A program made the position numbers and the translations under genes. A DNA stretch of 26,681 nucleotides. It comes from a virus (Duplodnaviria; Heunggongvirae; Uroviricota; Caudoviricetes). The stretch lies in IMG/VR virus record IMGVR_UViG_2718217859_000002; one strand, 5' to 3'. Below the pieces are notes generated by a model. That model was not told the origin of the DNA, did no database searches, and saw nothing but the letters and a program-made list of their open reading frames with translations. Each line of letters begins with the position of its first letter. Positions within the stretch are counted from its first letter, which is position 1. Positions 1,041 through 26,681 of the stretch are shown piece after piece.

Positions 1041-1045
1041 AATCG

Positions 1046-1261: not shown

Positions 1262-1833
1262 TCTAAAGAAAACTCCTCTGCTAAATCATCCTGCACATCC
1301 TGACCATACCCGATGTAATACATAGTAGAGCGCGGGTCTGTCTGTCCCAGGAAATGGGCTATTGTCTCTATAGCTACCCCTGCATCAAACATCACACGGC
1401 CCCGACTTTTACGTGGCGTATGGCATCCCACATTAGAGAATCCGGCTCTACGTCCCATTTTCCCAAATTCAGTGAATACCGTGTTACGGGTTACGGCTTC
1501 GCCTTTACTGCGTAATGTGCCAGCACTGAAAATAAAATCTGTAGCTACAGGCATCTTCGTTTGCTCTGCCTTGCGTTGTGCCACCACTGACAACATGGCG
1601 GGGGTAACTTTTGGCCTTACTACGTTTCCGGTTTTCTCCTGCTTTATCTTCAAATGAGATTGCCCCTCAACATCCTGATATTTTAGCTTGAGTACGTCAG
1701 AGACACGCAACCCGCTTTCATACATAAACACCCATAAGCAATAAAACAGGTTGGTTTTACTATTGCGCTGTAGCTCTGCTGCTACTGTTTTTACCTCGTC
1801 TACATTCTTGAGGGCTTGGCTAATACCTTTCAT
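1255..1833 (-). CDS. small tyrosine recombinase (phage integrase fold, about 192 aa)
   Basis: C-terminal catalytic-like residues (GLRVSD, CHTPRKSRG, STMYYIGY). ATG at 1833 has an AAGGAG SD 9 nt upstream; the longer ORF to 1929 lacks one. Confidence 0.6.
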   Translation of the reverse strand: MKGISQALKNVDEVKTVAAELQRNSKTNLFYCLWVFMYESGLRVSDVLKLKYQDVEGQSHLKIKQEKTGNVVRPKVTPAMLSVVAQRKAEQTKMPVATDFIFSAGTLRSKGEAVTRNTVFTEFGKMGRRAGFSNVGCHTPRKSRGRVMFDAGVAIETIAHFLGQTDPRSTMYYIGYGQDVQDDLAEEFSLEW

Positions 1834-1930
1834 CTTTATACTCTCCTTATTCGTTTCAATGAAAGTAGTTTTGATCATAAAACGATCATTTTCAATATGT
1901 TGCACGATACGTTTTATGGTTGAGAGCACT

Positions 1931-2017
1931 AAATGATCAAAAATGATTAAAGGGCTATTAAAAGGTGATTAAGACTGATTAAAAGGTATTAAAGGCGATT
2001 AAAACCGATTTAATTTA
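1931..2017. repeat. iteron-like array, about 7 copies of [G/T]ATTAAA(A)GG at 10-11 bp spacing
   Basis: Direct reading: tgattaaaggg, tattaaaagg, tgattaagac, tgattaaaagg, tattaaagg, cgattaaaacc, gatttaattt. Confidence 0.6.
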
Positions 2018-2243
2018 GGTGCGTCCGTCACCATCGTTGAACACAAAGATCAAGCCTCCCGATCTGATGCAGGCACAAATATGAAATATCTTATTGATTT
2101 ATAAGTAAATTTATTTTATTTAAGCTGTTCACAAATGATTTGTCTTGTCAAGAAATTTATTTTCGGCAGATGAAAAATAGCCAATAAATAGCGATAAATG
2201 GTCTATATATGCCTGAGTATATAAAGATCAGTAGGTTACAGAA

Positions 2244-2262
2244 TACACTTTGCTAAAGTGTA
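2244..2262. promoter_or_regulatory. perfect 8-bp-arm palindrome TACACTTT-gct-AAAGTGTA (operator-like)
   Basis: Inverted repeat read directly. Confidence 0.4.
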
Positions 2263-2647
2263 TCGAATCTGGGTTGTATTGCATTATAAGTGATAATAAT
2301 TCTTATTATTGAATTGTATGACAAATGATTATTCTCTTTGAGATGTGCACGAGTGAACATTCGTTCAACAAATGATAGAACGTTTATTGAGCAACAATTT
2401 TGCAGTGATGCGCTATATGCCGCATTACATAAGGCTTTGCTGATGATAATGTAAAAGTGAAGAAAGTAAGAATTGCACTTTGAATCTACCTTTCATTGCA
2501 TTTTTTAGTAGGGAATTACACGGAATAAGCTATGAATATTCTATGATTTACACGAGATATTCTTGCTGTTTAATTTCGGCTTTGGAGATCAGGCATTCGC
2601 AAGAATACGCTAATGCGTTGCCTGAAAAGCCATTGCACATAATAGAG

Positions 2648-2971
2648 GTGAGCGTATAGCGAACTATCAATGTGATCATTGCACGAATGATAATGAGTGG
2701 ATATAGATTCTATATATCGTTAGATTGTAGTTTGATAGTTAATGTGTAATGTAGATTGTATGAGCGTATAGCGAATGTTAGTTAGATCAACAACAAACTA
2801 ACCTTTAAATCTCTTTTATCTTCTCATAGATATGGCTATGCGTAGCAACCGAAGGTTAGCCATTAATCTATGCAGCCGTAAGGCTGTTTTGCATGTAATA
2901 GTTGTTTGTTGTTGGTAGTCGTTAGACAGTTACCAATTTATAGATCAGAGATAGATGTGAGCGTATAGCGA
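2648..2971. repeat. three dispersed copies of GAGCGTATAGCGA (2648-2662, 2761-2774, 2957-2971)
   Basis: Exact 13-14 nt direct repeats in an ORF-free AT-rich region. Confidence 0.6.
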
Positions 2972-3065
2972 TACACTAATCATAACAATATCTTCTTACT
3001 TTTTAGTTAGTTAGTTGTTAGTAGGTTATTGTTATGCGCGCTATTAGCGCATGTATAAAGGTATC

Positions 3066-3296
3066 ATTTTTATCTAAAGGGCTTTAGACATTTTTGATAC
3101 CTTTTTCATCTCTAAAAAAGTGTAATTTTTATCTAAAGGGGCTTTAGACATTTTTTACACCTTTTTCTGTGCAAGACACTTACCAGTGTGCACAATACTT
3201 ATGCTTTTCTAAAGCCGGGAATTTTTAAGTTTGATTGATCAATTGTTAACTTTAAAAGTTACTTTTAACAATCACTTAGACGATCTAAAGCCGCAA
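3066..3296. promoter_or_regulatory. operator cluster: two 40-bp direct repeats each with palindrome TCTAAAG(G)GGCTTTAGA (3073-3088, 3132-3148) plus TCTAAAG half-sites near 3208 and 3286
   Basis: Read directly; lies upstream of the plus-strand operon starting at 3520. Confidence 0.55.
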
Positions 3297-3437
3297 TTAA
3301 CATAATATAAGTTGACATGCAAGCACTTTTTACCATATAGTGCGGCCCCCTATCTATAAATCACACATTTTACCACTTGTCAATACCATAAATAACCTTA
3401 TAAAACAGGTGCTTAGTTTAGTATTGATAAATATTTA

Positions 3438-3466
3438 TTGACTAATACTATAAGATGGTGTATATT
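3438..3466 (+). promoter_or_regulatory. sigma70-like promoter TTGACT-N17-TATATT
   Basis: Hexamers at 3438-3443 and 3461-3466, about 55 nt upstream of the 3520 start; AGGAGG SD at 3507-3512. Confidence 0.45.
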
Positions 3467-3519
3467 AGCATTAGGGAATTGCATTCCGTAGTAACCAACA
3501 ACAACCAGGAGGTAAATAA

Positions 3520-3750
3520 TTGCGATGGTTTGACACTGAGCAAGTCTACATTGCCCTGAAATGTGGGGAAGTGAAACGCCACACAATAGCCAGCAATATG
3601 GGGCAATGCGTTACCCGTGGAGACGAGAAGCGTGCAAAGATGTTTCGTGATGCTCTTACACGGTATGACAGAGAACGCGCGATCATTGATGCGCAGAATG
3701 TGCCAGGGCGTAAGAAACGTGCTGGACGTAAATCACAATTAATCAACTAA
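3520..3750 (+). CDS. hypothetical basic protein (76 aa), TTG start
   Basis: AGGAGG 7 nt upstream of TTG; basic C-terminus (RKKRAGRK). Confidence 0.45.
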   Translation: MRWFDTEQVYIALKCGEVKRHTIASNMGQCVTRGDEKRAKMFRDALTRYDRERAIIDAQNVPGRKKRAGRKSQLIN

Positions 3751-3770
3751 CAAATAAAGAAAGGTGCTTT

Positions 3771-3932
3771 ATGGATATTCGATTCAATCCAGAAGTATTT
3801 GCAGAATTACGCACGATGGCAACACAACGAGGTATTAGTATTCCCGCGTTAGTTAACGTCATACTTAAAGAAAAAATCATCCTACATCAAGAGGAAAAAT
3901 ATGATAAAGACGATCAAACGAAAAATAGTTAA
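3771..3932 (+). CDS. ribbon-helix-helix (Arc/CopG-like) DNA-binding protein (53 aa)
   Basis: Below ORF-track size cutoff; translated by hand: MDIRFNPEVFAELRTMATQRGISIPALVNVILKEKI... fits a strand-helix-turn-helix pattern. AAGGTG SD upstream. 3' end overlaps next gene in another frame. Confidence 0.4.
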   Translation: MDIRFNPEVFAELRTMATQRGISIPALVNVILKEKIILHQEEKYDKDDQTKNS

Positions 3933-5385
3933 TAGCATTAATCCCGTTTACCTTGTAGATTCAATTTGCGGCTCAGGAAAGAGTCACCGCCTTATAGAAT
4001 ATATACTCGGCCTTCAAGATTCATCTGAAGCTATCCCGCAACGTGTTCTAATAGCCGTTCCTACGCATGAATTAGCCACAGAGACGCGTAATAAGATGTT
4101 AGACGCGGGAATACATGGTTATCATGTTAAAGTCGATAGCGGGGCTGTTTTAGCCCTTAAACAAACACTATCAGAATCCTTTGATTATCCGGTCGTTATT
4201 ACCACGCATCAGGCACTACAGGTTTTTTGTGAGAGAGCAACCTTTGATAGTGAGATGCAAAAACTCCTGTATCCCTTTCAAGTTTTCATTGATGAGATTC
4301 CGGCAGCTTGGCACGGCGATCACGCTACAGTTTTACATAGTGACTCTGTAACGGATAACTTCCCGTTTATGCAGTGGATGGAAGAGAGAGACGGATTATT
4401 ATTCCTTAAGTCTGACAATGAGAACGACCTTTACAAGTATTACCATGAACGCCACGCCGGATCGGATAGCCTGAAAGCGGTTATCTATGCTGTGCTGAAC
4501 GGTAGCGGCTTGCTTTATGGGGAAACAGATAAAGGGTACAGCTTCTTTGCGCAGACAGCTAACCCTGTGATCAATTGTGCAATGTGGTCTGAACGTCTAA
4601 CCATTATGGGGGCGGGTGTTAGCCGATCTGAATGGCGTTATGTAGCTGAGAACGTGGCTAAGGTGGAATGTATGCCAGCTCCTGATCATCTACTACCGGA
4701 CAACGACCGCAGAGAACATAAGAACACGCCTGTTAAACTGGTATCTGTGCTAAAGCCAGGAGTAAGAGCGACGCTTACGCAATTACAGGAAGTTTTTAAC
4801 AACCATCTACAGACGATTGCCCTTACTATGGGAAGTCGGTTTATCTTTGCAACGAACAACGACAAAGGGATCTGTAACTTCAAGACTATTGCACTCGATA
4901 GCCTGGAGGATAACGGGAAAGGAAAAGCGGTAAGCATGGCAAGCTACGGGCTGAACGTATACCAGAGCTACCACGCCGCCGCTTTCCTGGGGTGTGCTAA
5001 CCTCAATGCTACAGATAACAACCGATGGGCGCAATGGCTTAATTTCTCCGGTTATGACGCTGAGGCGGTGTTACGCCTTAAGGTTGAAGCAATGACCTAT
5101 GAGCGTTGCTACCAGTTTATAAGCCGCACAAGCATTCGTGATAGTTCCTGCAAAGAGGCTTTAACGTTTATCGTGCCTGATACGCAGTGTGCTGAATATA
5201 TCAAGCGTTGGTATCTTCCACAGGCTGAGATCACAACGTTAGGCATCGAGAAGGAAAGGAAGAAAGAGAAGGGCGCTAATACAAAGGCAGCTATTCAGGA
5301 ACTGAAAGCTAAAGGCATGAAGCAAAAAGCTGTAGCAGAGGCGTTAGGCTTAGGGATTGCAACGGTTAAACGTAACTGGAAATGA
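3901..5385 (+). CDS. P-loop NTPase, helicase-like (replication-associated?) with C-terminal HTH (494 aa)
   Basis: Walker A CGSGKSH near N-terminus, PTHELA (helicase motif Ia-like), TTHQAL, Walker B VFIDEIP; C-terminal KAVAEALGLGIATVKRN HTH. GAGGA SD upstream. Function inferred from motifs only. Confidence 0.55.
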   Translation: MIKTIKRKIVNSINPVYLVDSICGSGKSHRLIEYILGLQDSSEAIPQRVLIAVPTHELATETRNKMLDAGIHGYHVKVDSGAVLALKQTLSESFDYPVVITTHQALQVFCERATFDSEMQKLLYPFQVFIDEIPAAWHGDHATVLHSDSVTDNFPFMQWMEERDGLLFLKSDNENDLYKYYHERHAGSDSLKAVIYAVLNGSGLLYGETDKGYSFFAQTANPVINCAMWSERLTIMGAGVSRSEWRYVAENVAKVECMPAPDHLLPDNDRREHKNTPVKLVSVLKPGVRATLTQLQEVFNNHLQTIALTMGSRFIFATNNDKGICNFKTIALDSLEDNGKGKAVSMASYGLNVYQSYHAAAFLGCANLNATDNNRWAQWLNFSGYDAEAVLRLKVEAMTYERCYQFISRTSIRDSSCKEALTFIVPDTQCAEYIKRWYLPQAEITTLGIEKERKKEKGANTKAAIQELKAKGMKQKAVAEALGLGIATVKRNWK

Positions 5386-5404
5386 TCTACAACGGTGCAC
5401 ACAG

Positions 5405-5429
5405 AAAGGGGCAAATCAGCCCCTTTTTT
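5405..5429 (+). terminator. rho-independent terminator after helicase-like gene
   Basis: AAAGGGGC-aaatca-GCCCCTTT followed by a T run. Confidence 0.6.
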
Positions 5430-5588
5430 ATTGCCTGTAGTAAATAGCACGAATTGCTAAAGAAAAACTATTGACTATCTATAAACTTTATGATACTCAT
5501 AAGTATTGAGGTGCATACAACCTCAAAAGTAACGTATATAGAGTATCCCTTTATACATATATCATACAACAACCACAAGGAAAAGCAA

Positions 5589-5774
5589 ATGAAATATTTT
5601 TCAGTTTTAGATGTGCTGATGGCACTGATTGAAGGTCGAGTAAGCCGAAACCGGATTCTACAGAACCGTAACGCAGCACGCCGCAGCGGTTATCACGATC
5701 GTGAGGCTCTATTCACCGAAGCCCTGCAAAAGTTCGACCAGATTCGCAAACGTGAGAAGGAAGGGCAGCTATGA
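5589..5774 (+). CDS. hypothetical small protein (61 aa)
   Basis: ATG with AAGGAA SD; the track ORF from 5490 has no SD. Confidence 0.4.
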   Translation: MKYFSVLDVLMALIEGRVSRNRILQNRNAARRSGYHDREALFTEALQKFDQIRKREKEGQL

Positions 5775-6028
5775 AACATCATTTAAGCATTGGTAAGCAC
5801 GAATACGAGATCACGGAAAGCGGATACACACTGGCAAAACAGATCGCTGATAGCAATTATGAGCTACCCGCAATTATCAGCTTTCAGGGGCTACCCCATA
5901 GCAAGGAACACACACAGCACTGGTTAAATCACTTAAGCCATTTCGGGGTGATTCAGTATGAAGCTGTGAATAGTCAGACGTTCCGTTTGCTTGAGATAAA
6001 CCCGTTTGAATTGTGGGTGACGCTGTGA
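5771..6028 (+). CDS. hypothetical protein (85 aa)
   Basis: ATGA overlap with upstream ORF. Confidence 0.45.
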   Translation: MKHHLSIGKHEYEITESGYTLAKQIADSNYELPAIISFQGLPHSKEHTQHWLNHLSHFGVIQYEAVNSQTFRLLEINPFELWVTL

Positions 6029-6231
6029 TCATATTCGATAGCGAATTTTCACAAGAAATCTTTCTGCAATATTTACGGGAAAGAACGGGAATGATTCTGT
6101 TTGATTCTGAGTTTTCCGGTGTGGTAGGTGAGCAATTTTTATATGCTCTTCTCGATAGCCTAAGTAAACAAGGCTTATTGCAATATACAAAAACTCATAT
6201 GAAAGCATTTAGAATCGACTCTGTAGCTTAA
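6013..6231 (+). CDS. hypothetical protein with internal tandem repeat (72 aa), GTG start
   Basis: Protein-level duplication IIFDSEFSQEIFLQYL / ILFDSEFSGVVGEQFLYAL. Confidence 0.35.
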   Translation: MGDAVIIFDSEFSQEIFLQYLRERTGMILFDSEFSGVVGEQFLYALLDSLSKQGLLQYTKTHMKAFRIDSVA

Positions 6232-6269
6232 AACAAACAACTATCAAACATCTTGAAGGGTGGAAAACA

Positions 6270-6371
6270 ATGGAAAGCTTAATATTTTTCTTAGTATTCA
6301 TGATCGCTTCCTTTTTTAACACTGCAAGAAGAAAACCAAAACGAAGGGGAAGCAATGAGCAAGCAAAAAGG
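6270..6371 (+). CDS. 33-aa hydrophobic peptide (single TM helix plus basic tail)
   Basis: Hand-translated: MESLIFFLVFMIASFFNTARRKPKRRGSNEQAKR; GGTGGA SD-like upstream. Below track cutoff. Confidence 0.25.
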
Positions 6372-6735
6372 TAAGAAAAACGTAATAACAACTATTGGCG
6401 AAGCATGTGATCAGTATGCGTTAAACAATCCTCGCAAATATAACTACGAGCATGATGCACAACCAGGCGAAGAATTGATCTTTATACTTGAAGAACCAAG
6501 CCCAGAATTAACAGACGAAGAATTATCACTCATTCAAAGTATGGACGGTGTTTATTTTAATCCACGTCCACGCAAAACAACGGTTATAGATTCCAGTCTT
6601 CTAAAAAGATGGCAGTGTTTGGGGTTTTCAGACATGGCCCATTTTAGGGGGTATATGTCAATGAATAGCCTTCAATATGCAGGCGTGCGAGAAACCGAAT
6701 TACTTCTGCTTGATAAAGTAAACATTGACGATTAA
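6355..6735 (+). CDS. hypothetical protein (126 aa)
   Basis: GAAGGGGAAG SD-like upstream of ATG. Confidence 0.5.
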   Translation: MSKQKGKKNVITTIGEACDQYALNNPRKYNYEHDAQPGEELIFILEEPSPELTDEELSLIQSMDGVYFNPRPRKTTVIDSSLLKRWQCLGFSDMAHFRGYMSMNSLQYAGVRETELLLLDKVNIDD

Positions 6736-6776
6736 CAGCGTTTGCTGAATATAAACCTTAACAAAAGGAAAATAAA

Positions 6777-6998
6777 ATGATTAACAAAGCAATTTTAGAG
6801 ACAACCACTTTTCACGATCTTAAACTTCTTTCTGAATGCTTCATAAGCCTGATTGAACGAGCACAGGAAGAAAACGATCTCGGTTTACTCGATGATATTA
6901 TAGACAACATTGCAACTTATAAAATCCCGCTCACCATTGCTATGAAGAAAGCACGCGAAGCACAACAACAATTAGAACAATTAGAGGAAGTGGCATAA
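6777..6998 (+). CDS. hypothetical protein (73 aa)
   Basis: ORF with AAGGAAAA upstream. Confidence 0.45.
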   Translation: MINKAILETTTFHDLKLLSECFISLIERAQEENDLGLLDDIIDNIATYKIPLTIAMKKAREAQQQLEQLEEVA

Positions 6999-7306
6999 TG
7001 AGCACTACACACAACGTAACTATTCAGATGATGGATCTGATTATTTCTTTACAGAAGGCAGTTAATTCGGCTCTGACGTTTCCAACTGAGCTAACCATTG
7101 CACAGGCTGTTATTAACCTGGAATCGACGCGGGAAGCACTTGAACTACTTATTGCAGCGTGCGAACAATCCGAAGGTGCACAGGTTGAAGCTGACGAATT
7201 GTCTAATCTGATCATCGTTATTCATGACACCACTGAAATCATGAAAGAAGCGGTAGCAGACCTGCAACCACTCATTAATGAACTAATCGACAAGGCTAAC
7301 AACTAA
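6998..7306 (+). CDS. hypothetical acidic protein (102 aa)
   Basis: ATAATG overlap coupling with upstream ORF. Confidence 0.45.
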   Translation: MSTTHNVTIQMMDLIISLQKAVNSALTFPTELTIAQAVINLESTREALELLIAACEQSEGAQVEADELSNLIIVIHDTTEIMKEAVADLQPLINELIDKANN

Positions 7307-7515
7307 TGACAAAAACTAAACGTGTGCGCCTTCTGGCGCTCACAGAAGAAGGGAAAGCGGGTAATTGTTTCACAGTAGGTAAAGTGTATACCGGCTTACT
7401 CGACACTTACACCCGCCTGATGCACGTAACCGATGATAACGGTAACGATCAAACAATCGTTTTAGATGGTAATTGCGTATTTGGTGAATGGGAACTGACA
7501 ACCGAAAAGAATTGA
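7306..7515 (+). CDS. hypothetical protein (69 aa)
   Basis: TAATG overlap coupling. Confidence 0.45.
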   Translation: MTKTKRVRLLALTEEGKAGNCFTVGKVYTGLLDTYTRLMHVTDDNGNDQTIVLDGNCVFGEWELTTEKN

Positions 7516-7534
7516 AAAAACTTTGATTTAACTA

Positions 7535-7563
7535 TTGACTTTATAACAGAAATGTTATATAAT
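7535..7563 (+). promoter_or_regulatory. near-consensus sigma70 promoter TTGACT-N17-TATAAT
   Basis: Hexamers at 7535-7540 and 7558-7563 with a 17-nt spacer. Confidence 0.5.
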
Positions 7564-7569
7564 AAGAAG

Positions 7570-7810
7570 TGTAGGGGAAAGAATCTAAAACAGGTGTTAG
7601 CTGGCGTTAATCCTTCTCCCGATTTTAATCCTACACGAAAGCGGGGTAGACCTCAAGGGGTCGCGCCCTATCTAACCTGCCTCGCTTTCCCTTTACCAGT
7701 TTTTTTAGAAATTGTTTCCCTCGTTAATAGTTTCATATATTTTCCTTATTGCTTTATCAAAATTGTGTCTTAAGAATGCAGGGGCTACGGATTTGGCCCC
7801 TCATCTTTTT
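7570..7810 (+). ncRNA. candidate small non-coding RNA (promoter to terminator, no convincing ORF or SD)
   Basis: Predicted start about 7570; GC stem pairing 7634-7645 with 7681-7691 followed by a T run near 7700; second terminator at 7781-7810. Confidence 0.3.
7781..7810 (+). terminator. rho-independent terminator
   Basis: GGGGC-loop-GCCCC followed by TCATCTTTTT. Confidence 0.55.
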
Positions 7811-7957
7811 AACCAACTGCGAAGCATGAAACACTTTCTAAAAACACTGTTTACAGTGTCTATAAACCCCGTATAAACAAATAACGGTGTATATTGTTTC
7901 TTGACAACAATTCTACTAAGCCAAAAGCTGAATATGTTTTTTGTTTGTTGGTGTTTA

Positions 7958-8146
7958 TTAAGGTGCCAATCTTAGAACGCTGAAAGCGTGGATGATCCCC
8001 GAAATCATCTCGGCACCGCCTCCTATTAAAATGAGAATCCAAAAGGTTTGAAAGTTAATAGTAGTTCCTAAAAGTCTGATCGATGCATCCACATTGTGAA
8101 AGACAGCGATTAGCCATCGCACGAATAACAGGTTTATAGATTCCAA
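7958..8146 (-). CDS. small hydrophobic protein (62 aa), TTG start
   Basis: Perfect AGGAGG SD 8 nt upstream of TTG (minus strand); hydrophobic sequence with GGG turn. Confidence 0.3.
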   Translation of the reverse strand: MESINLLFVRWLIAVFHNVDASIRLLGTTINFQTFWILILIGGGAEMISGIIHAFSVLRLAP

Positions 8147-8310
8147 AGGGGGCGACCTCCTAAGCGCCTACTCCCTGTAAGCCTGTTATTCAACCCCTCA
8201 AGGGTATATAACAATAAGCAATCTTATTCTTATATGTCCTCCTCTTTAAGTTCATATAACTGCGATTTAGTAACACTCTATAACATCCTTCAAATGTTGT
8301 ATTCATAAAG

Positions 8311-8340
8311 CCGGAAGCTTTCCCCTTCCGGTTTTATTTT
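8311..8340 (+). terminator. rho-independent terminator just upstream of structural operon
   Basis: CCGGAAG-ctttccc-CTTCCGG followed by TTTTATTTT. Confidence 0.6.
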
Positions 8341-8382
8341 GTCAGCACTAAACAAGAATGTTAGAAAAAAGGTAAAGCAACA

Positions 8383-8598
8383 ATGCAAAATCTCATTCTA
8401 AAGAATGGTAATGAAGAATTGATTATCACTAATGAAGCATTCAACGCTACGGCTTATATGTTGGGAATCACTCCCACAGAATTGAAAAAACATTGTGATA
8501 AGCTTTTTAAGTCTGCTGATGAACAGAAACCTACTATGCAGGATCTGATTAAAGCAAAAGCAGAACAAATCAAACAATCCAAAAAAGGAAACAATTAA
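8383..8598 (+). CDS. hypothetical small protein (71 aa)
   Basis: AAGGTAAAG SD upstream; first gene of structural cluster. Confidence 0.45.
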   Translation: MQNLILKNGNEELIITNEAFNATAYMLGITPTELKKHCDKLFKSADEQKPTMQDLIKAKAEQIKQSKKGNN

Positions 8599-8601
8599 TT
8601 T

Positions 8602-8973
8602 ATGGCTATTATTAATATGAGCGATCTGTTTCCAGTTCGCAAATCATTTACCGATATCGTTTCATATGCAACTGATGAGTTCGGTTGTGTGCAATCTTTT
8701 ACCGTTGATCTGGCGGTTGATGTTGAATGTGGCGATCTGATTACCAGTGACGGCGCTGAATATGTAAGCGGCGGCGATGTTCTTGTCGTTGTGTCTGATG
8801 CGGTATCCGCTGGCGACGCTAAAACCGTTAACGTGCTGCGTAGCAATGCCGGACTGGTTTGCATCAAATCCGATGCTCTGAATGTTGAAGGCGCTGTGAA
8901 AGAAGCCGCTATTGCTGCCCTGGCTGCAAAAGGTTTCCAGATGGCTGGCTTTAATACTGTATTCACATCTTAA
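8602..8973 (+). CDS. putative head decoration-like / minor virion protein (123 aa)
   Basis: Beta-rich V/D/A/G/S composition; sits immediately upstream of the capsid-like gene (decoration-then-capsid order as in lambda D-E). Homology not verified. Confidence 0.4.
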   Translation: MAIINMSDLFPVRKSFTDIVSYATDEFGCVQSFTVDLAVDVECGDLITSDGAEYVSGGDVLVVVSDAVSAGDAKTVNVLRSNAGLVCIKSDALNVEGAVKEAAIAALAAKGFQMAGFNTVFTS

Positions 8974-8991
8974 TATAAAGGAATAAAAATA

Positions 8992-10020
8992 ATGATTATT
9001 GGTAATGAATCCGTCGATCTGGCTCCGCTGTTTAGTCTGCACGACTCTCGCAACTTCCTGTTAACTTCTCTCGACTTTACTGATCCGGTAGGTGTGAGTT
9101 CTCATAAAGTGGCTGTTAGCCAACTGGTGGAAACTAACGAATCTCTGTTCAACAAAGAAACCTCTCGTTTCTCTTCTGAACATAACGTGACTAAACGTGA
9201 ACAGGGTAAAGAATTTTTAGTAGAGATCCCCTACTTCCTGCGTGAAGATATGATTAAGCCGCAAGACGTGCAAGGCAAACGTAAGCCAGGCGCTACCGTT
9301 GAAGAAACTCTGACAGATATCTACGCGGAATATGTTGCTAAGCACCACATTGCTTTCCAGCGTACTAAAGAGAGCGTGCTGGCTGCTTCCCTGTTTAGTG
9401 GTCGCACCTACACCCCTAAAACTGACGATGTGCTGATCCAGTGGGGCGATCTGTTCAGTGCTGTTCCGATGACTGCAACCATCGACGCATCAAGCACCAC
9501 ACCTTCTATGGTGTTCCAGCAATTCGATCAGATGCATACAGACGTTATCACTAAAGCACAAAGCCAGGCGGCTGCTGTAGAGCGTATCGTTGTATTCTGT
9601 AAACCTGCCGCTTTCAACGCTATCCGTTACAGTGCTGGCATGGTTAACGCGTTCCAGTATGCAAGCCCTACCGACGACGCAAACATCGTTTATAGCGTGC
9701 GCTCCCTGCTGCCAGGTGTGACTACCTTCACTATTCCAGGGACTAATATCGATATCGTCAAAGTTACCGATCCGCTGCTGCTGGCGCATATGACTTCTGA
9801 TGCGGTGGCTGTTCCGAAGTTCGCTAAAGGCTCTAACGTCTATCAGAACATTTTCGGCGCTCCGTCTTCAACGTTCGACCTGCTGAATTCTGGATCGGCT
9901 GAATATTACAGCTATGCATTTAGCCCAGCACGTAACGACGCTGTAAACGTAGTTACCGAGAATAGCCAGATGGTTGTAAACCACGGCGTAGGCTTCACTG
10001 TACAGATCACAGTAGCGTAA
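8992..10020 (+). CDS. putative major capsid protein (342 aa; lambda gpE-like size and architecture)
   Basis: Size, position and a 30-aa helix-prone segment (TLTDIYAEYVAKHHIAFQRTKESVLAASLF) compatible with an HK97-fold spine helix; strong SD. Inference, not search-based. Confidence 0.5.
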   Translation: MIIGNESVDLAPLFSLHDSRNFLLTSLDFTDPVGVSSHKVAVSQLVETNESLFNKETSRFSSEHNVTKREQGKEFLVEIPYFLREDMIKPQDVQGKRKPGATVEETLTDIYAEYVAKHHIAFQRTKESVLAASLFSGRTYTPKTDDVLIQWGDLFSAVPMTATIDASSTTPSMVFQQFDQMHTDVITKAQSQAAAVERIVVFCKPAAFNAIRYSAGMVNAFQYASPTDDANIVYSVRSLLPGVTTFTIPGTNIDIVKVTDPLLLAHMTSDAVAVPKFAKGSNVYQNIFGAPSSTFDLLNSGSAEYYSYAFSPARNDAVNVVTENSQMVVNHGVGFTVQITVA

Positions 10021-10070
10021 TAAAGCGTTAATAGTCGTTTCCTGTGCGACTGGAAATAAAACAGGCAATA

Positions 10071-10137
10071 AGGGCAAAAGGGATTAACTAACCTGTAAAG
10101 CAAATACAGTAACGGATCTCTTTGCCCTTTTTGTTTT
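10071..10137 (+). terminator. structured terminator after capsid-like gene
   Basis: 9-bp stem AGGGCAAAG/CTTTGCCCT enclosing a 39-nt loop with nested CTGTA/TACAG hairpin, then TTTTGTTTT. Confidence 0.45.
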
Positions 10138-10170
10138 CTACCGTTTATTAAATATTGTGAGAGAAAAACC

Positions 10171-10362
10171 ATGAACACACAAAACAACAATCCCGTTGAA
10201 ATCTTGAAAGCTGTTTCCACCTTACCGGAAGATATTCTGAATATCTCTCAAGTATGCAAGTTTTTAGGGATCTCTAATACCGCTGTACGTCAAAGAATCT
10301 TTGCTACTGGCTGTTCCGCTATGGAAGCAGTGCAATATTACGTAGCAAAACAAAATAAGTAA
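10171..10362 (+). CDS. small HTH DNA-binding protein (63 aa)
   Basis: ISQVCKFLGISNTAVRQRIF helix-turn-helix pattern. Confidence 0.45.
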   Translation: MNTQNNNPVEILKAVSTLPEDILNISQVCKFLGISNTAVRQRIFATGCSAMEAVQYYVAKQNK

Positions 10363-10380
10363 AAGATAAAGGAAAATATT

Positions 10381-12222
10381 ATGGATCTGAATATCTCAAC
10401 CTTAACAAACAAGGTTGTATTTAAGGTGGATTTTGCATCATTACAGAAAGCACGCGATGCAGGTAAGAAATTCCAGAAAGAAATGGAAAACCTAACCAAT
10501 CCAACATTGAAAGGGAAGAAGGCTAAACGAGCTATAGACGATGCTAACGATCTGGTAAAAGCCCGTAAAGCTACACAGGCTAAAGCTGATGCCAAAGCGT
10601 CAGACAAGCAAGCTCAAACCGATAAGAAGAACGCTGATAAGGTGGCAAAGGCAGAAGCTAAAGCGAAGGCTAAAGCCGCTATAGCTGCCGATAAACAGAT
10701 CCGCGCTAAAGCAACGATAGCAGAGAAGGCAGAGATTAAACGCCAGCAAGCTTTTAGACAGCTTGAAGGCATCAAGAAAGGGCGTATGGGTGACGGTATG
10801 GACTCCGCCCAATACTACAAAACATTACAATACATCAAACAACAAACGGCAGCTTACGAGAAAGGCGCTATTAGTCAGGCTAAGATGAATCACCTGATCC
10901 GTGATCGCATCACGTTAGAACGCCGTGCGGCTGCTGTTAAAGCTCGCCAGGTGGCGGCTGATGGCGGTAAATATCCACATATGGCTAAACAGCTTAAAGG
11001 TGGTCATATAGGCGGTGGTGTAGGTGCAATGGTGGGCGGTGCTGCTCTCACTGCTGCTACTCTCGGCGGTGCTGCGATATTCAATACCGTAACCGATCAG
11101 GCAAGCAAGATCACAGACACTAACCGCAAGGCAAAAGCTGTTAACGTCAACACTAACGCCCTGTTAGCACTCAACCAGTACGGCTTAGAGCACGGGGTAG
11201 ATAGTTCCGTTGATCAACGTCAAGATAACCTTAAAGACGTTCAAGAACGTTTAGGCGAGACGATAGGGAATACTAAGTGGGATGCTAAAAAGGGTCGCTG
11301 GGCGGGGGGTAACGGTGCCGTTGATAACATCCTTAACAAATATGGTTGGAGTCCTGAACAGGTTAAAGGTTTCCAAACTGATCCATTAGGTTTCCTGGGT
11401 GCTGTAGTGAAAGAAGGCGAACGCCGTGGACTCTCTGACCAGGAGCAGGGTCACATGCTCGAAGACCTTGGAAATGATTTACAATATTTCCGTGGGGCTT
11501 TCAGTCGTAACGGTGAAGAGTTAAATAAAACTCTCGTTAAGATGCAACAAGCCAACGCCACCTATACACAAGCGGATCTTGACGCTGCTGAACGTCTGCA
11601 AGCTGTACAGGCTAATATGAATATGGCCTGGGAAGGTAGTAAGAAAGCTATCATGACGGGATTCGGTGAAGAGTTCGACGCTCAAGCTGGTGAAGAGTGG
11701 GCGCAAATGTTGAAAGATCTCAATCCTCTGTTTAAAGAACTTGGAAGCTCAACGGCTGAAATGATGAGTGCCTTTGCTGGTGCTGTATCGTGGCTTACTG
11801 CTGCATACCAGAATATAAATCCAGAGAACAAACATGAAAACCTTGATTCGTCCGGTATGTATTATAAGGACTCGTTTGTAGGTGGTATGGTTGATTGGGG
11901 TCGTAGTGCTTTAGGCTTATCGCCTATCCCTGGCACGGAAGACAAGCCAACAACTGGCGGAACTGCAATTCAGAACTATGCAAGCCCGTCCGAGAACGTG
12001 CAATCCCTGAAACAGAACGTTAGCCGTGATCTGAACACTACCCCATCTATGACGTATGCGCCAAGCATTGTCGTAAACGTGCCAGAAAGTAAGGTTGATG
12101 TGAATATCGCCCCTGATGGCTCTCAGCTTGGATCATACCTCGACTACAAAGTGGGAAGTATCCAACAAGATTTTGAACGTAGTTTCACGTTGGCGGCTCT
12201 GTCTGGGCAAGCACCAAGTTAA
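10381..12222 (+). CDS. large coiled-coil protein with Gly-rich hydrophobic segment (613 aa), tape-measure/pilot-like
   Basis: K/A/E-rich N-terminal coiled coil; GGHIGGGVGAMVGGAALTAATLGGAAIF segment; AAGGAAAA SD. Confidence 0.55.
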   Translation: MDLNISTLTNKVVFKVDFASLQKARDAGKKFQKEMENLTNPTLKGKKAKRAIDDANDLVKARKATQAKADAKASDKQAQTDKKNADKVAKAEAKAKAKAAIAADKQIRAKATIAEKAEIKRQQAFRQLEGIKKGRMGDGMDSAQYYKTLQYIKQQTAAYEKGAISQAKMNHLIRDRITLERRAAAVKARQVAADGGKYPHMAKQLKGGHIGGGVGAMVGGAALTAATLGGAAIFNTVTDQASKITDTNRKAKAVNVNTNALLALNQYGLEHGVDSSVDQRQDNLKDVQERLGETIGNTKWDAKKGRWAGGNGAVDNILNKYGWSPEQVKGFQTDPLGFLGAVVKEGERRGLSDQEQGHMLEDLGNDLQYFRGAFSRNGEELNKTLVKMQQANATYTQADLDAAERLQAVQANMNMAWEGSKKAIMTGFGEEFDAQAGEEWAQMLKDLNPLFKELGSSTAEMMSAFAGAVSWLTAAYQNINPENKHENLDSSGMYYKDSFVGGMVDWGRSALGLSPIPGTEDKPTTGGTAIQNYASPSENVQSLKQNVSRDLNTTPSMTYAPSIVVNVPESKVDVNIAPDGSQLGSYLDYKVGSIQQDFERSFTLAALSGQAPS

Positions 12223-12280
12223 TGATAAAGAGAATGTTTAATCACAATCTAAAACACTCTTATAAGGAATTAAGCATATA

Positions 12281-12314
12281 AGAGGCTCCCATTACAAGGA
12301 AGCCTCTTTATTGC
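12281..12314. terminator. hairpin terminator between convergent genes
   Basis: AGAGGCTCC-attacaa-GGAAGCCTCT then TTTATTG. Confidence 0.5.
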
Positions 12315-12329
12315 GCCTATGGCGTTGTT

Positions 12330-13550
12330 TTAAGCCTTAAAATCAATATTTAATTCATATCTTACTAATTCTACATATTCAGCTAATTCTTGAATGCTTG
12401 CCCCTTGTGAGTAGGTGCGAAAGGCTTCTGTTTTAGCTATCTGCTCTGTATGTCCGGTAATGGCTCCGATCCGCTGTTCAGGCACTCCTGCACGATCAAG
12501 ACAAGTGATAAACATCCCGCGCAAGCTGTGAAAGCATTGTCTATTTGTAGCGATTGGCAAGACGCTACGACGTAAACGTGAGAATGCTTGAGAATAGAAC
12601 GGGCCTTTCTTACCGTCGATTCTTTTTACTTTGTTCGAGTGAGGGAACAAATATTCACCATAATTATGATTTAAATATTCATCGACAATAATCGATAGTC
12701 TCGAATGTATCGGAACGTGTCTGATCCCTGCTTTAGTCTTACTTTTGCTGATATAAAAACAGCGTATTCCTTCCACAGTTACAACCTCTGACTTTTTCAG
12801 AGTTGCCAGTTCGTCTAATCTGCATCCTGAAAACAAGCCCATTAAAATAATATTTCTGATCTCCGGCTCCGCTGCATCAAGTAGCTTTTGCATTTGTTCA
12901 GGTGTAAACGGTTGATAACTCTCGATTGTGCGACGTGCTTCGAGGTTATGACCGTGAAAAGGGTTACTGTCTGGTATTCCGTCATAACGGCGTTTAGCAA
13001 ATTCATAGAGCGATCCTAAGCATGTAAGCCAGTTTTGACGAGATTGATCGGCTGCTCCTCGTTGCTTCTGGTCATCTAAGAATACTGTTACAAGCCGTCT
13101 GCCTATTTTCTCAATATGAATATCATCTTTCTGAATGCTTTGTAAAAATAGCTCAACGGCCCTTGCTGATTTCTGTAGTGTTGAGTATGAACGACGCTCT
13201 CTGTAGCATTCGGCGTATTCGTCACGTATTAGGCACAGGGAAGGCGGTGCATAACCGCGTTTTACAGCTCTTTGCGTGTTTTTATTGGCACTTGCCTCTG
13301 AATGTAAGGATTCAATAGCTTTTTGTAACCTCCTTTCGGGGTTATCAGGATTATGTTTCCGCTTTAGTTCCTCCCATTCTAATAACAGATGGTTTCTGAA
13401 TCTTCTCGCCTCATTCAGATCTCGTGTAGATGTGCTTTTTCTCCACAACTTGTAAGGGTAAAGATGGCGTAAGTATTTAGGAACAAAAATCTGAAACATC
13501 CAGATCCCATCTTTTCTCTTAAATAAGTATGCTTGGCTCTTGATCGACAC
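12330..13550 (-). CDS. int: tyrosine integrase of element 1 (406 aa), GTG start
   Basis: C-terminal HSLRGMFITCLDRAGV...GHT...Y catalytic-like motifs; N-terminal YLFKRKDGIWMF arm-binding-like hairpin; GAGGA SD. Confidence 0.85.
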   Translation of the reverse strand: MSIKSQAYLFKRKDGIWMFQIFVPKYLRHLYPYKLWRKSTSTRDLNEARRFRNHLLLEWEELKRKHNPDNPERRLQKAIESLHSEASANKNTQRAVKRGYAPPSLCLIRDEYAECYRERRSYSTLQKSARAVELFLQSIQKDDIHIEKIGRRLVTVFLDDQKQRGAADQSRQNWLTCLGSLYEFAKRRYDGIPDSNPFHGHNLEARRTIESYQPFTPEQMQKLLDAAEPEIRNIILMGLFSGCRLDELATLKKSEVVTVEGIRCFYISKSKTKAGIRHVPIHSRLSIIVDEYLNHNYGEYLFPHSNKVKRIDGKKGPFYSQAFSRLRRSVLPIATNRQCFHSLRGMFITCLDRAGVPEQRIGAITGHTEQIAKTEAFRTYSQGASIQELAEYVELVRYELNIDFKA

Positions 13551-13635
13551 GATAATGATCCTCTATTATCACGTAATCAGTTACCTATGATTGATCACAA
13601 AATCTTTATTTTACAGCAGGTTATTGTGGGTTTCC

Positions 13636-13657
13636 TCGATTCCCTTCGCCCGCTCCA
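13636..13657 (+). other. att core: 22-nt fragment matching the 3' end of tRNA-Gly(CCC) (TCGATTCCCTTCGCCCGCTCCA)
   Basis: Ends in CCA; acceptor 3' strand CGCCCGC pairs with the GCGGGCG 5' end of tRNA-Gly; matches my recollection of E. coli glyU. No 5' tRNA body present. Confidence 0.6.
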
Positions 13658-13821
13658 AACAAACATTTCTCAACGTCTACTAAAGTCCATCAAACCCACG
13701 AATATCAAGCCTTCCAGGCATTTTCATAGTTTATTAACGTCTACTCACAACTACCAGAATCTACACACAGAAGTGTATAGTAATGCGTATAGGACAAAAT
13801 TTATTTTTTGGAGCTATACAC

Positions 13822-15036
13822 ATGCTGCTTTCAGACCTTGCCATCAGGCGCGCGAAGCCGAAAGAAAAGGCTTATACACTCAATGACGGTAACGGGCTTT
13901 CGTTGCTCATTGAGCCGAACGGTTCGAAAGGGTGGCGACTGCGCTACAGGTTTGCAGGAAAGCCCAAAATGTTGTCGTTGGGTGTGTACCCTGATGTGTC
14001 TCTGTCTGATGCCAGGGCGGCAAGGGATGAGGCTAAAAGGCTTCTTGCTGGTGGTATAAATCCAAGTGAGGCCAGAAAAGCCCAAAAGCGAGAACAGGCG
14101 AGCAAATTTGGCAATACTTTTGAGGGTATTGCTCGCGAATGGTACGAAAAGCGGATCGACAGGTGGTCATCGTCATACGCCGAGGAAATGATCGAGACGT
14201 TTGAAAAAGATGTTTTTCCGTACATTGGCGGTAGGCCGATCGCAGAAATTAAGCCGATGGAATTGCTGGCGGTTCTTTCCCGTCTTAATGACCGTGGTGC
14301 GACTGAAAAATTGCGTAAGGTTCGCCAGCGATGCGGCGAGGTGTTCCGGTACGCAATCATCACCGGACGCGCCGAATATAATCCAGCCCCTGACCTGGTG
14401 AGCGCATTTGCTCCACATAAAAAAGAGCATTACGCCTATTTGAAGGCCGACGAACTGCCGGAATTTTTCCGCGTTTTTAATACGTACACCGGAAGCCAGA
14501 TCGTCAAACTGGCAATGCGGCTATTAATTCTGACAGGTGTCAGACCCGGGGAATTACGGCAGGCAGAATGGCAGGAGATCGATTTTGATAATCGTTTGTG
14601 GGAAGTGCCTAAAGAACGAATGAAGATGCGCCGTCCGCATTGTGTGCCATTACCAGAACAGGCGATAAAAATACTGGAGCAGTTAAAAAACATGACAGGC
14701 CAGTATCAGTTTATTTTCCCCGGTCGTATTCACCACAGTAAGCCAATGAGTGAAATGGCGATGAATGTGCTCATTCGTCGTATCGGCTATGCCGGGCGCG
14801 TTACTGGTCATGGATTCCGGCACACCATGAGCACCATTTTGCATGAGCAGGGCTATAACACCGCGTGGATAGAGACGCAGCTCGCACACGTCGATAAAAA
14901 CTCAATTCGTGGCACATACAACCATGCGCAATATCTGGATGGTCGCCGGGAGATGCTCCAGTGGTATGCCGACTATATGGATTCGCTCGAGCATGGCGGA
15001 AATGTGGTGCATGGTGAGTTCGGAAAATGCGGGTGA
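13822..15036 (+). CDS. int: P4-type tyrosine integrase of element 2 (405 aa)
   Basis: N-terminal LSDLAIRRAKPKEKAYTLNDGNGLSLLIEPNGSKGWRLRYRF arm-binding domain typical of P4/CP4-57-type integrases; C-terminal HGFRHT...Y; GGAG SD. Track ORF begins earlier at 13783 without SD. Confidence 0.9.
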   Translation: MLLSDLAIRRAKPKEKAYTLNDGNGLSLLIEPNGSKGWRLRYRFAGKPKMLSLGVYPDVSLSDARAARDEAKRLLAGGINPSEARKAQKREQASKFGNTFEGIAREWYEKRIDRWSSSYAEEMIETFEKDVFPYIGGRPIAEIKPMELLAVLSRLNDRGATEKLRKVRQRCGEVFRYAIITGRAEYNPAPDLVSAFAPHKKEHYAYLKADELPEFFRVFNTYTGSQIVKLAMRLLILTGVRPGELRQAEWQEIDFDNRLWEVPKERMKMRRPHCVPLPEQAIKILEQLKNMTGQYQFIFPGRIHHSKPMSEMAMNVLIRRIGYAGRVTGHGFRHTMSTILHEQGYNTAWIETQLAHVDKNSIRGTYNHAQYLDGRREMLQWYADYMDSLEHGGNVVHGEFGKCG

Positions 15037-26501: not shown

Positions 26502-26681
26502 ATGACCATCACCGAAGCCGATATGCTGGAGATGATCCGCAGCATTGCCGAAATCAAACAACCAGCAAGCAAAATTAACAGGTGTTCAGCGCCTGTTTCC
26601 GTTGTGCTGCAACAGGAACGCCACCAGCAGGATGATGTGAGGCCGTATCAGTGGAAGAAACCGGACAGGCCGCGACGGTGA
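26502..26681 (+). CDS. hypothetical small protein (59 aa), ends at window edge
   Basis: AAGGTG SD upstream of ATG; hand-translated; stop TGA is the last codon of the window. Confidence 0.35.
   Translation: MTITEADMLEMIRSIAEIKQPASKINRCSAPVSVVLQQERHQQDDVRPYQWKKPDRPRR

Follow-up and report, generated by a model that had tools for sequence, protein, structure and literature searches.

The 26,681-nucleotide stretch of DNA analyzed here (the window; IMG/VR virus record IMGVR_UViG_2718217859_000002) carries in its left half an integrative element, element 1, with capsid-like and decoration-like genes but no visible terminase, portal, or protease gene, which raises the question of what kind of element encodes a head that it appears unable to fill. 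The window sequence is identical to that of Escherichia coli 08-00022 (NZ_CP013662.1), and its flanks were taken from this annotated record. Element 1 encodes a major capsid protein (MCP), a lambda gpD-like decoration protein (Dec), a full-length tail tape measure protein (TMP), a replication module, an integrase, a small recombinase, and anti-phage cargo. From these genes and from their relatives in bacteria and phages we infer satellite behavior, and element 1 is probably a satellite of Stephanstirmvirinae-type phages, a group of large lytic myoviruses that includes phi92, phAPEC8, Phapecoctavirus, and Justusliebigvirus. Related loci are cited by number (L001 and onward), and the coordinates of the window features are collected in Table 1.

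Element 1 is a closed, att-flanked unit of 14,258 bp, this being the spacing between its two 22-bp cores. The left core consists of the last 22 nucleotides of the tRNA-Gly gene glyU (TCGATTCCCTTCGCCCGCTCCA; positions 4379 to 4400 of L007), and the same 22-mer recurs once, immediately to the right of the integrase gene, where it doubles as the attL of the next element. The glyU gene is located ~600 bp to the left of the window start, past actS (ygeR), with only non-coding DNA in between. The first-pass annotation of this DNA had proposed looking upstream for a tRNA-Gly and a second att core, and it is this tRNA gene that carries the 22-bp core. The right end that it gave, 13657, is exact and equals the end of the attR core. 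Its left end, 1931, is wrong, as the att-delimited unit begins at the glyU tRNA and takes in window positions 1 to 1929, with the PD-T7-4 defense gene, two small genes, and the small tyrosine recombinase. Because the att sites close the element and the left flank is non-coding up to the tRNA, a terminase, portal, and protease set lying just past the window within the same unit is excluded. The same two cores also flank the element elsewhere, at a spacing of 14,257 bp in other E. coli loci (13,660 bp in one of them, which has other cargo) and of 13.9 kb in three Klebsiella pneumoniae loci, and in strains without the neighboring element the integrase gene is followed by ordinary chromosome (yqeG or ETT2 secretion genes).

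All of the open reading frames (ORFs) of the first-pass annotation were found in place, and the structural operon has the order 71 amino acids (aa), 123 aa, 342 aa, 63 aa (helix-turn-helix [HTH]), and 613 aa. The 123-aa beta-rich protein, thought to be decoration-like, does have the lambda gpD-like decoration fold. The 342-aa protein had been called capsid-like, and its match to Phage_cap_E is above the curated cut-off; in addition, its AlphaFold2 model, which is of moderate quality (predicted local distance difference test score [pLDDT], 64), resembles in Foldseek searches the HK97-fold capsids of PhiTE, Sf14, ICP1, Bas63, and lambda. This MCP shows 24% to 26% full-length identity to the MCPs of Stephanstirmvirinae, which are ~150-kb coliphages. 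The 613-aa Gly-rich coiled-coil protein, listed among the structural-looking genes, does not belong to the head, and the statement that tail genes are absent fails with it, as the protein is a TMP according to its PHROG match. It is an end-to-end homologue (30% identity) of the TMP of phage anhysbys, the role of which is set by synteny (sheath, tube, chaperone, TMP, and baseplate). Satellite and phage TMPs are colinear and share an N-terminal LEIN..KI.N.V.F.VD..SL..AK motif, a central Gly-rich hydrophobic segment, and a C-terminal LSGQ motif, with lengths of 599 to 628 aa in the satellites versus 662 aa in the phage. Because the 613-aa protein is a TMP, element 1 would contribute to the tail as well as to the head.

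In contrast to these head and tail genes, none of the element 1 ORFs matched a Pfam, PHROG, or NCBIfam family for terminase, portal, protease, scaffold, neck, sheath, tube, or baseplate proteins. Every ORF of the att-delimited unit is accounted for, and neither of the two genes expected of an autonomous tailed prophage, a large terminase and a portal, is among them. No match to a Dit-like baseplate gene was found after the TMP gene in the window, and the TMP stop codon (12222) is separated from the integrase gene (12330) by only 107 bp.

Homologues of the MCP at 40% to 98% identity are confined to chromosomes of Enterobacterales (E. coli, E. albertii, Klebsiella, Citrobacter, Enterobacter, Cronobacter, Pluralibacter, Kluyvera, Dryocola, Pseudenterobacter, Serratia, and Pantoea); a scan of species-representative genomes gave 6 loci. 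The order Dec-MCP-(HTH)-TMP-(Dit)-integrase, with the integrase gene on the minus strand, is invariant in ~35 loci from E. coli, Klebsiella, Citrobacter, Enterobacter, Pseudenterobacter, and Pantoea, and no homologues of phage TerL, portal, protease, or sheath were found within 10 kb on either side of these loci. The elements measure 12,364 bp at thrW (23-bp repeat), 13.7 to 14.3 kb at glyU, 13.9 kb in Klebsiella, and 14,279 bp in Citrobacter (41-bp repeat). Among 5,426 complete E. coli genomes, the structural module was matched in 560 (~10%), and the glyU-type module was matched over at least 80% of its length in 57. Compared with the window element, the thrW-lineage loci (L028 to L043) have Dec proteins that are 63% to 72% identical and MCPs that are 74% to 79% identical. 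Both proteins are under purifying selection, with ratios of nonsynonymous to synonymous substitution rates (dN/dS) of ~0.12 to 0.22 at saturated synonymous sites (0.12 for the MCP versus the thrW lineage).

Two circular Logan contigs with 30-nucleotide terminal overlaps lack the large integrase. L018 (SRR33299909) is a 14,021-bp Pantoea-type circle in which a ParA gene spans the junction, and L054 (SRR16178778) is a 14,251-bp circle, the early half of which shares 88% to 89% DNA identity with window positions 2569 to 8396. The L054 MCP is only 19% identical to that of the window and had no match in Pfam or in the phage collection. The L054 TMP is 34% identical to the anhysbys TMP, and a Dit-like gene is present (assigned by Pfam Dit_like). 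No plasmid with the Pantoea-type MCP was found in PLSDB.

This distribution bears on two readings of the locus that do without a helper. If element 1 were what is left of an ordinary prophage, decaying after the loss of its packaging and tail genes, then its place in a tRNA hotspot beside another element, its isolated subset of structural genes, and the insertion sequence (IS) insertions seen in some copies (L006) would all fit. However, both att cores and all genes are intact, the genes are under purifying selection, and the same minimal gene set and order recur in ~35 loci of several genera and at different tRNA sites; circular episomal versions exist, and the related phages are lytic, with genomes of ~150 kb, and not temperate. 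We find this origin scarcely credible. The element's own capsid shell genes, its own replication, and the circular 14-kb forms would agree with a minimal autonomous virus, a particle resembling a gene transfer agent, or a compartment of the encapsulin type. Such a reading is nevertheless very improbable, since a portal, a terminase, or an alternative packaging ATPase was found in none of the members, a TMP without tube, sheath, and baseplate cannot form a tail, and neither a lysis cassette nor an encapsulin cargo signature is present. The "minimal virus-like element" considered in the first-pass annotation is thus unsupported, with no packaging or portal function in the ~35 relatives, whereas its other suggestion, a satellite-like element with a self-made shell that depends on a helper for everything else, is the best supported by the capsid and decoration folds within a closed 14.3 kb that lacks terminase, portal, and protease.

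The identity of the likely helper is indicated by the tail genes. The TMP was matched by 134 phage records, all of ~130 to 160 kb and listed with phi92/phAPEC8-type Stephanstirmvirinae phages; the taxonomy was verified for anhysbys (Phapecoctavirus) and inny (Justusliebigvirus) only, both of which belong to Stephanstirmvirinae. The Klebsiella TMP is 40% to 42% identical to phage TMPs. A Dit-like gene follows the TMP gene in the thrW, Citrobacter, Pantoea, and L054 relatives, and its product shows 71% to 73.5% (Citrobacter), 57% (E. coli thrW), and 48% (Pantoea) identity to the product of the phage gene directly after the phage TMP gene. Between satellite lineages the TMPs are only 24% to 36% identical, whereas the MCPs are 53% to 76% identical among enterobacterial lineages and 34% to 39% identical to the Pantoea form. 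This far greater divergence of the TMPs fits tail parts that track the helper. The conserved TMP termini, together with the rapid turnover, suggest that TMP and Dit have to match the tail components of helpers and are replenished from them; contact of the termini with the chaperone or terminator and with the hub is assumed here.

A second set of links concerns replication. The modules are swapped among lineages (DEAD-like, RepA/O-like, and HTH_36), and parts of some of them reappear in a single phage protein, the 367-aa gp184 of inny (L056, positions 7447 to 8550). Its N-terminal segment is 82% to 88% identical to the N termini of the replication proteins of L034, L022, and L023, and its second segment is 89% to 91% identical to those of L041 and L032. 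At its C terminus, the motif DRRIKEQ...DGYTET is common to gp184 and the annotated endonuclease gp075 of anhysbys. A single phage gene may therefore be directed against two types of satellite replicon, and the pattern of a phage nuclease with captured satellite origin-binding domains independently reproduces that reported by Barth et al. in 2023. Such Odn-like nucleases with the Rep DNA-binding domains of sister satellites point to an arms race between satellites and phages. The Rep protein of the thrW lineage (L028) had no match in the phage database, whereas other Rep variants match inny gp184. A late-promoter motif common to satellite and phage was considered and dropped, as the phage structural genes are located behind ordinary sigma-70-like promoters and offer nothing distinctive.

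Several observations weigh against reading the window element as a satellite of these phages. Neither inny gp184 nor any Stephanstirmvirinae record matched the 494-aa replication protein, and the Dec protein showed no sequence homology to the phage decoration protein in BLASTP and hhalign comparisons. IMG/VR yielded no element-length virome contig, its matches being 19- to 76-kb provirus calls in bacterial genomes. The links of the glyU lineage to the phage group are distant (MCP, 24% to 26%; TMP, 30%) and do not include a Dit-like gene, and the true helper of this lineage could be an unsampled relative. All members of the family are known from sequence alone, the 2023 description having been bioinformatic only, and at 24% identity the MCP may not be able to assemble on a helper portal and be processed by a helper protease.

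The same distances could mean that element 1 is a satellite of some other helper, from an unsampled or a different myovirus group, with the shared TMP and MCP ancestry being old. The closest non-self TMP among 5.8 billion proteins is 36% identical and itself comes from a satellite; the MCP family profile, when compared with the PDB, scores slightly better against the MCP of Pseudomonas Pakpunavirus P7-1 (1.6e-16) than against phi92 gp124 (1.4e-15); and the glyU lineage has neither a Dit-like gene nor an Odn match. Yet all phage records with a detectable TMP homologue are of the ~130- to 160-kb Stephanstirmvirinae type, with the above-mentioned verification for two of them. The early half of element 1 is nearly that of L054, which carries a Dit-like gene and a TMP related to that of anhysbys, and in the sister lineages the tail genes are 57% to 73% identical to those of the phages and the Rep domains have been captured by inny. 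We therefore regard another helper as unlikely.

The cargo of element 1 allows a different reading. The PD-T7-4 gene, of which the identical copy in L001 matched Pfam DUF4145, sits between attL and the small recombinase gene in a slot whose contents vary in relatives (L004 has other small genes there, and in L012, from Citrobacter, positions 1654 to 2379 encode a type IV methyl-directed restriction HNH enzyme). Defense cargo in the att-proximal slot is typical of satellites and was counted in favor of that reading, but a bona fide defense gene would equally suit a defense island in which MCP, Dec, and TMP act as dominant-negative decoys and which is itself unpackaged, spreading by integration, excision, and other routes. 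Satellite capsid homologues are known to disturb helper assembly (SaPIbov5 Ccm; PMC8569155), the phages carry a countermeasure against the replication origin, and the IMG/VR matches include no packaged form. A decoy does not need a matched pair of Dec and MCP under strong purifying selection, however, nor a full-length, phage-colinear TMP, nor its own replication module and a size held at 12.4 to 14.3 kb across genera in both integrated and episomal forms. Moreover, interference and transfer are compatible and are coupled in known satellites. A purely defensive island seems quite improbable to us.

If element 1 is a satellite of Stephanstirmvirinae-type phages, its life cycle could run as follows. 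Helper infection would turn the element on, and the integrase, perhaps together with the 63-aa HTH protein, would excise it. Replication would start from the AT-rich iteron region and be driven by the 494-aa helicase-like protein, and the terminator-insulated operon (71-aa protein, Dec, MCP, HTH protein, and TMP) would then be expressed. MCP and Dec would assemble on the helper portal, with a helper protease or scaffold, into a small shell; its size, T=3 or T=4, is an estimate from the 12- to 14-kb genome and from the T=4 satellites P4 and SaPI1, and PLE (an element resembling phage-inducible chromosomal islands). The helper terminase would pack this shell, and the helper would supply neck, sheath, tube, and baseplate, the satellite TMP being built into the tail, in many relatives along with the Dit-like tail-tube initiator. 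The particle would carry the element to a new cell, where it would integrate at the tRNA gene or, in the integrase-less relatives, persist as a circular episome. The yield of the helper would probably suffer.

A broader proposal, which we consider possible but doubtful, is that these satellites rebuild both ends of the virion of a lytic helper, placing a small all-satellite shell (MCP plus cement protein) on a stolen portal and replacing the TMP (and in many cases the tail-tube initiator as well), so that the core of the DNA delivery apparatus would be specified by the satellite. The fast divergence of TMP and the repeated uptake of Dit from helpers would then reflect an arms race over tail compatibility, and the integrase-less circles would be plasmid-like satellites of lytic phages. 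If this holds, such rebuilding at both virion ends would have been demonstrated for the first time in satellites.

The layout of element 1, which the first-pass annotation took to fit no known kind, has in fact been described. Barth, Dunham, and Seed (2023; NAR Genom Bioinform 5:lqad076; PMC10448857, Fig. 8 and Table S6) list 224 putative E. coli satellites, unnamed and from sequence only, that carry Dec, MCP, and TMP genes as well as a baseplate gene and an integrase on the tRNA side but lack the signature genes of phage-inducible chromosomal islands that form capsids (cfPICIs), and link them to coliphages Inny, Muut, and Mt1B1_P17. The same article reports captured Rep domains in a phage nuclease both for these satellites and for PLE/ICP1. 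As given there, these satellites share with element 1 the Dec, MCP, and TMP genes, a tyrosine integrase at one att site beside a tRNA gene, the E. coli host, and a size of ~12.5 to 16 kb, and they lack terminase, prohead protease, AlpA, head-tail adaptors, and Pri-Rep, none of which was matched in the ORFs of element 1. In Table S6 the thrW att core, which is shared with loci L028 to L043, has 143 string matches, whereas the glyU core has none in the text of that table, from which CP013662 is also absent.

The window element differs from the satellites described in that article in four respects: (i) it is located at glyU and not at thrW; (ii) it has a 494-aa DEAD-like protein in place of the RepA_N initiator that is mirrored in the phage T5orf172 nuclease, an initiator type found, as matched by inny gp184, in sister loci L022, L023, L032, L034, and L041 (82% to 91%); (iii) it lacks the baseplate (Dit-like) gene; and (iv) it adds the small recombinase and the PD-T7-4 cargo. 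Because the Klebsiella members also lack the Dit-like gene, we read this gene as accessory in the family. The glyU lineage thus appears to be a previously unlisted lineage of an already described but uncharacterized satellite family. A literature search found no later paper on these satellites. As far as we found, what goes beyond the 2023 description, all by sequence comparison, would be the spread past E. coli, the circular integrase-less forms, a second MCP type, the pre-operon terminator, and the turnover of TMP and Dit.

Among other satellites, cfPICIs are said (Alqurainy et al., 2023) to have a capsid of their own. Like element 1, they combine an HK97 capsid protein of their own with dependence on helper tails, and they occupy tRNA or other att sites in Enterobacteria. 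In contrast, they encode the complete set for head and packaging (portal, protease, head-tail connectors, TerS, and at times TerL) along with AlpA and Pri-Rep and borrow nothing but tails, whereas no portal, protease, connector, or terminase was detected in the 14.3 kb of element 1, which has a TMP. No Phage_AlpA or primase domain was found in element 1, while both are present in the neighboring element 2. SaPIbov5, which lacks portal and protease genes, encodes Ccm, a homologue of the helper capsid protein with which small T=4 capsids are made (Hawkins et al., 2021; PMC8569155). Encoding a relative of the helper's capsid protein is common to both satellites, but Ccm is found in pentamers only and co-assembles with the capsid protein of a temperate siphovirus helper, whereas element 1 has an MCP with ~24% identity to that of the candidate helper and its own decoration protein, a Gram-negative host, and a lytic candidate helper. 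The low identity and the decoration protein suggest a shell made wholly by the satellite.

PLE of Vibrio cholerae resembles element 1 in its large lytic myovirus helper (ICP1; T=13), its small satellite capsid, its modular replication initiators, and the origin-directed helper nucleases derived from captured satellite Rep domains. It has neither a capsid gene nor a TMP, remodels the ICP1 coat with the external scaffold TcaP, and differs in integrase type and host. P4, the satellite of P2, is an 11.6-kb, plasmid-capable E. coli satellite with small T=4 capsids. It shares with element 1 the host, the tRNA site, and defense cargo but has no MCP or TMP and relies on the external scaffold Sid and Psu decoration on P2 gpN, cos ends, and alpha primase. 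Element 1 showed no Pfam or PHROG match to P4-type Sid, Psu, Delta, or alpha primase-helicase; a cos site was not specifically searched for. Aci01-2-Phanie (Acinetobacter) and MiniFlayer (Streptomyces) are likewise of ~12 to 18 kb and have their own capsid and an unrelated or lytic helper. Reportedly, Phanie is a phi29-like podovirus that packages and replicates on its own but uses a borrowed contractile tail. MiniFlayer is described as encoding encapsidation functions and lacking replication genes, and element 1 has the reverse split, as it brings a replication module but no packaging genes.

Detailed knowledge of satellites that exploit large lytic phages comes from a single system, PLE and ICP1 in V. 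cholerae. With the present family, E. coli and Klebsiella provide another system of this kind, which follows a different strategy in bringing its own shell, cement, and, unusually, tape measure. If confirmed, it would represent a new division of virion building between parasite and helper and would explain the origin-directed nucleases of Stephanstirmvirinae phages. Phages of this group are used in phage therapy cocktails, and a resident element could blunt such phages and move defense genes such as PD-T7-4 between strains and genera. The gain from this window is smaller: it adds a glyU lineage, not listed before, that has a different replicon and lies in tandem with a cfPICI-like element.

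Table 1. Features of element 1 and of the neighboring element 2 in the window
Feature	Position	Strand	Basis
PD-T7-4 anti-phage defense protein (DUF4145), 206 aa, cargo	1-621	+	PADLOC PD-T7-4, 6.3e-90
139-aa cargo protein	621-1040	+	PHROG 1244 (unknown function), 5.4e-7; co-varies with PD-T7-4 gene among loci
71-aa protein paired with small recombinase	1046-1261	-	PHROG 4641, 8e-7
Small catalytic-domain-only tyrosine recombinase, 224-aa ORF (192 aa in RefSeq)	1255-1929	-	Pfam Phage_integrase, 1.2e-15; PHROG 216, 5.7e-29
AT-rich non-coding region with iteron-like repeats; putative origin or other cis sites	1931-3500	.	33% GC
Two small early ORFs, 76 aa and 53 aa	3520-3932	+	Annotated in RefSeq; position kept in L054; no family match
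494-aa DEAD/DEAH-like P-loop protein, C-terminal HTH	3901-5385	+	PHROG 2467, 3.5e-35; Pfam DEAD, 1.5e-4; weak HTH_23 at residues 462-491
Seven small early ORFs	5490-7515	+	No Pfam matches
Candidate small RNA: promoter, ~135- to 235-nucleotide structured transcript, intrinsic terminator	7535-7801	+	Promoter/terminator scan; folding
Intrinsic terminator upstream of structural operon	8310-8342	+	GCCGGAAG-loop-CTTCCGG, then TTTTATTTT
71-aa first gene of structural operon	8383-8598	+	No family match; 64-74 aa, position kept in all lineages
Head decoration (cement) protein, lambda gpD-like fold, 123 aa	8602-8973	+	Family matches and predicted fold
MCP, HK97 fold, 342 aa	8992-10020	+	Pfam PF03864 Phage_cap_E, 7.3e-11; PHROG 29 major head protein, 4.6e-11
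63-aa HTH protein between MCP and TMP	10171-10362	+	Weak HTH_17 (0.087), HTH_8, Sigma70_r4; PHROG excisionase, 0.017
TMP homologue, 613 aa	10381-12222	+	PHROG 16051 (TMP), 1.4e-65
DUF6538-type tyrosine integrase, 406 aa, tRNA-distal end	12330-13550	-	Pfam Phage_integrase, 2.1e-12; DUF6538, 2.1e-9; PHROG 1, 2.2e-38
attR core, 22-bp direct repeat of glyU 3' end (TCGATTCCCTTCGCCCGCTCCA)	13636-13657	+	Identical 22-mer at tRNA-Gly 3' end
Element 2 P4-type integrase	13783-15036
Element 2 AlpA-like HTH, AntA, and Icd-like protein
Element 2 D5-type primase	19278-21050
Element 2 ProQ/FinO	21692-22270
Element 2 DUF2213 protease-like protein	23611-24282
Element 2 345-aa protein	24625-25662		PHROG 196
Element 2 TerS-like HTH protein	25672-26196

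The integrase was confirmed on the minus strand, and it has the identical position and orientation in all integrated relatives. The small recombinase, which is retained in the integrase-less circles L018 and L054 and missing from the thrW lineage, has the size of Xer or FimB/E-type invertases, yet it scores below the cut-offs of those families. An invertible switch composed of this recombinase and the inverted repeats at 1936 to 1952 and 3082 to 3098 was considered and rejected, as six close E. coli loci are all colinear. The 71-aa protein encoded beside it has 67- to 74-aa homologues adjoining the small recombinase in Klebsiella and Citrobacter elements, and these recombinase-adjacent proteins are 33% to 52% identical to anhysbys gp209.

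In the AT-rich region that follows, which had been noted as repeat rich, the repeats are real: TGAGCGTATAGCGAA occurs three times, two ~55-nucleotide palindromic repeats are located at 3054 to 3167, and GATTAAA-type repeats are located at 1936 to 2010. A gene-poor stretch of 1.6 to 2.9 kb is kept at this position in all lineages. Within it, positions 2337 to 2553 are 77% to 83% identical to the thrW lineage (L028, positions 5231 to 5392; L022 to L024), versus ~72% in coding DNA, and the conserved block (~2370 to 2545), a possible origin, packaging site, or regulatory site, bears repeated ATTACAC-like motifs. RNAalifold gave -16 kcal/mol for positions 2360 to 2560 with no covariation signal, and an Rfam search of the window returned no family. 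The ATTACAC-type repeats were dismissed as a helper pac site, since no such cluster was found in phage anhysbys or in the Klebsiella, Citrobacter, and Pantoea elements. The 13-mer TATTGATTTATAA is common to the E. coli and Pantoea elements, ~160 to 190 bp upstream of the small recombinase gene (window positions 2088 to 2104; L018, 2775 to 2802), and occurs once in the anhysbys genome (973 to 1000); with BLAST E values of 0.01 to 0.5, this sharing is probably due to chance. In Klebsiella members, a gene for a Dam-like methyltransferase is embedded in the long non-coding region (L009, 4394 to 5083; L055, 2980 to 3666), possibly as anti-restriction cargo.

The 494-aa P-loop protein is a putative replication helicase or initiator of the glyU lineage. 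Its description as helicase-like is weakly grounded, the Pfam DEAD match being below the cut-off and PHROG 2467 being a family of unknown function. Homologues with 45% to 46% identity occupy the same slot in L027, L044, L049, and L053, whereas other lineages have RepA/O-like initiators there; its phage relatives are distant T4-like hypothetical proteins only. The seven small ORFs that follow were confirmed as proposed, and the last of them (7306 to 7515; 69 aa) encodes a protein that is 45% identical to gp057 of anhysbys, which belongs to the phage early genes, and that matches PHROG 27862 (5.9e-15).

An 870-bp gap separates these ORFs from the structural operon. It contains a sigma-70 promoter at 7535 to 7563 (TTGACT-17-TATAAT; 11 of 12 consensus matches) and a terminator at 7780 to 7801. 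The intervening transcript is predicted to fold into two long hairpins (-68.1 kcal/mol; z = -2.74; none of 200 shuffles equally stable). The candidate RNA has no Rfam family, and an overlapping 73-aa ORF is unsupported; speculatively, it could be a regulatory small RNA between the early and structural modules. The first-pass claim that the structural genes are bracketed by terminators stands only in part: there is no excess of terminators (7 versus 5.5 ± 2.1), but a hairpin and U-run before the operon are conserved. In the window a strong hairpin with a U-run lies ~40 to 70 nucleotides 5' of the operon, and a GC hairpin with a U-run is present 30 to 90 nucleotides 5' of the first structural gene in all six lineages, with unrelated sequences. 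This conservation suggests that the operon is insulated from read-through and turned on in another way.

The first protein of the operon shows 65% to 67% identity to its counterparts in some thrW-group members. The 63-aa HTH protein is a candidate excisionase or regulator; a 60- to 67-aa gene fills the slot between MCP and TMP in most lineages, although tblastn with the window protein found only some of the census loci. A 26-nucleotide match (92% identity) between its ribosome-binding site region and phage early genes was too short to interpret. IS elements interrupt some copies of the element, either in the stretch ahead of the structural operon or within the TMP gene (L006, 7501 to 8546; L040/L043, 12227 to 13528; H83 and H119, from E. 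coli genomes), and part of the population is therefore decaying.

An unrelated element 2 lies in tandem with element 1, from position 13659 to the window end at 26681, with its right end past the window. On the basis of its gene content (Table 1), it looks like a satellite of the cfPICI type.

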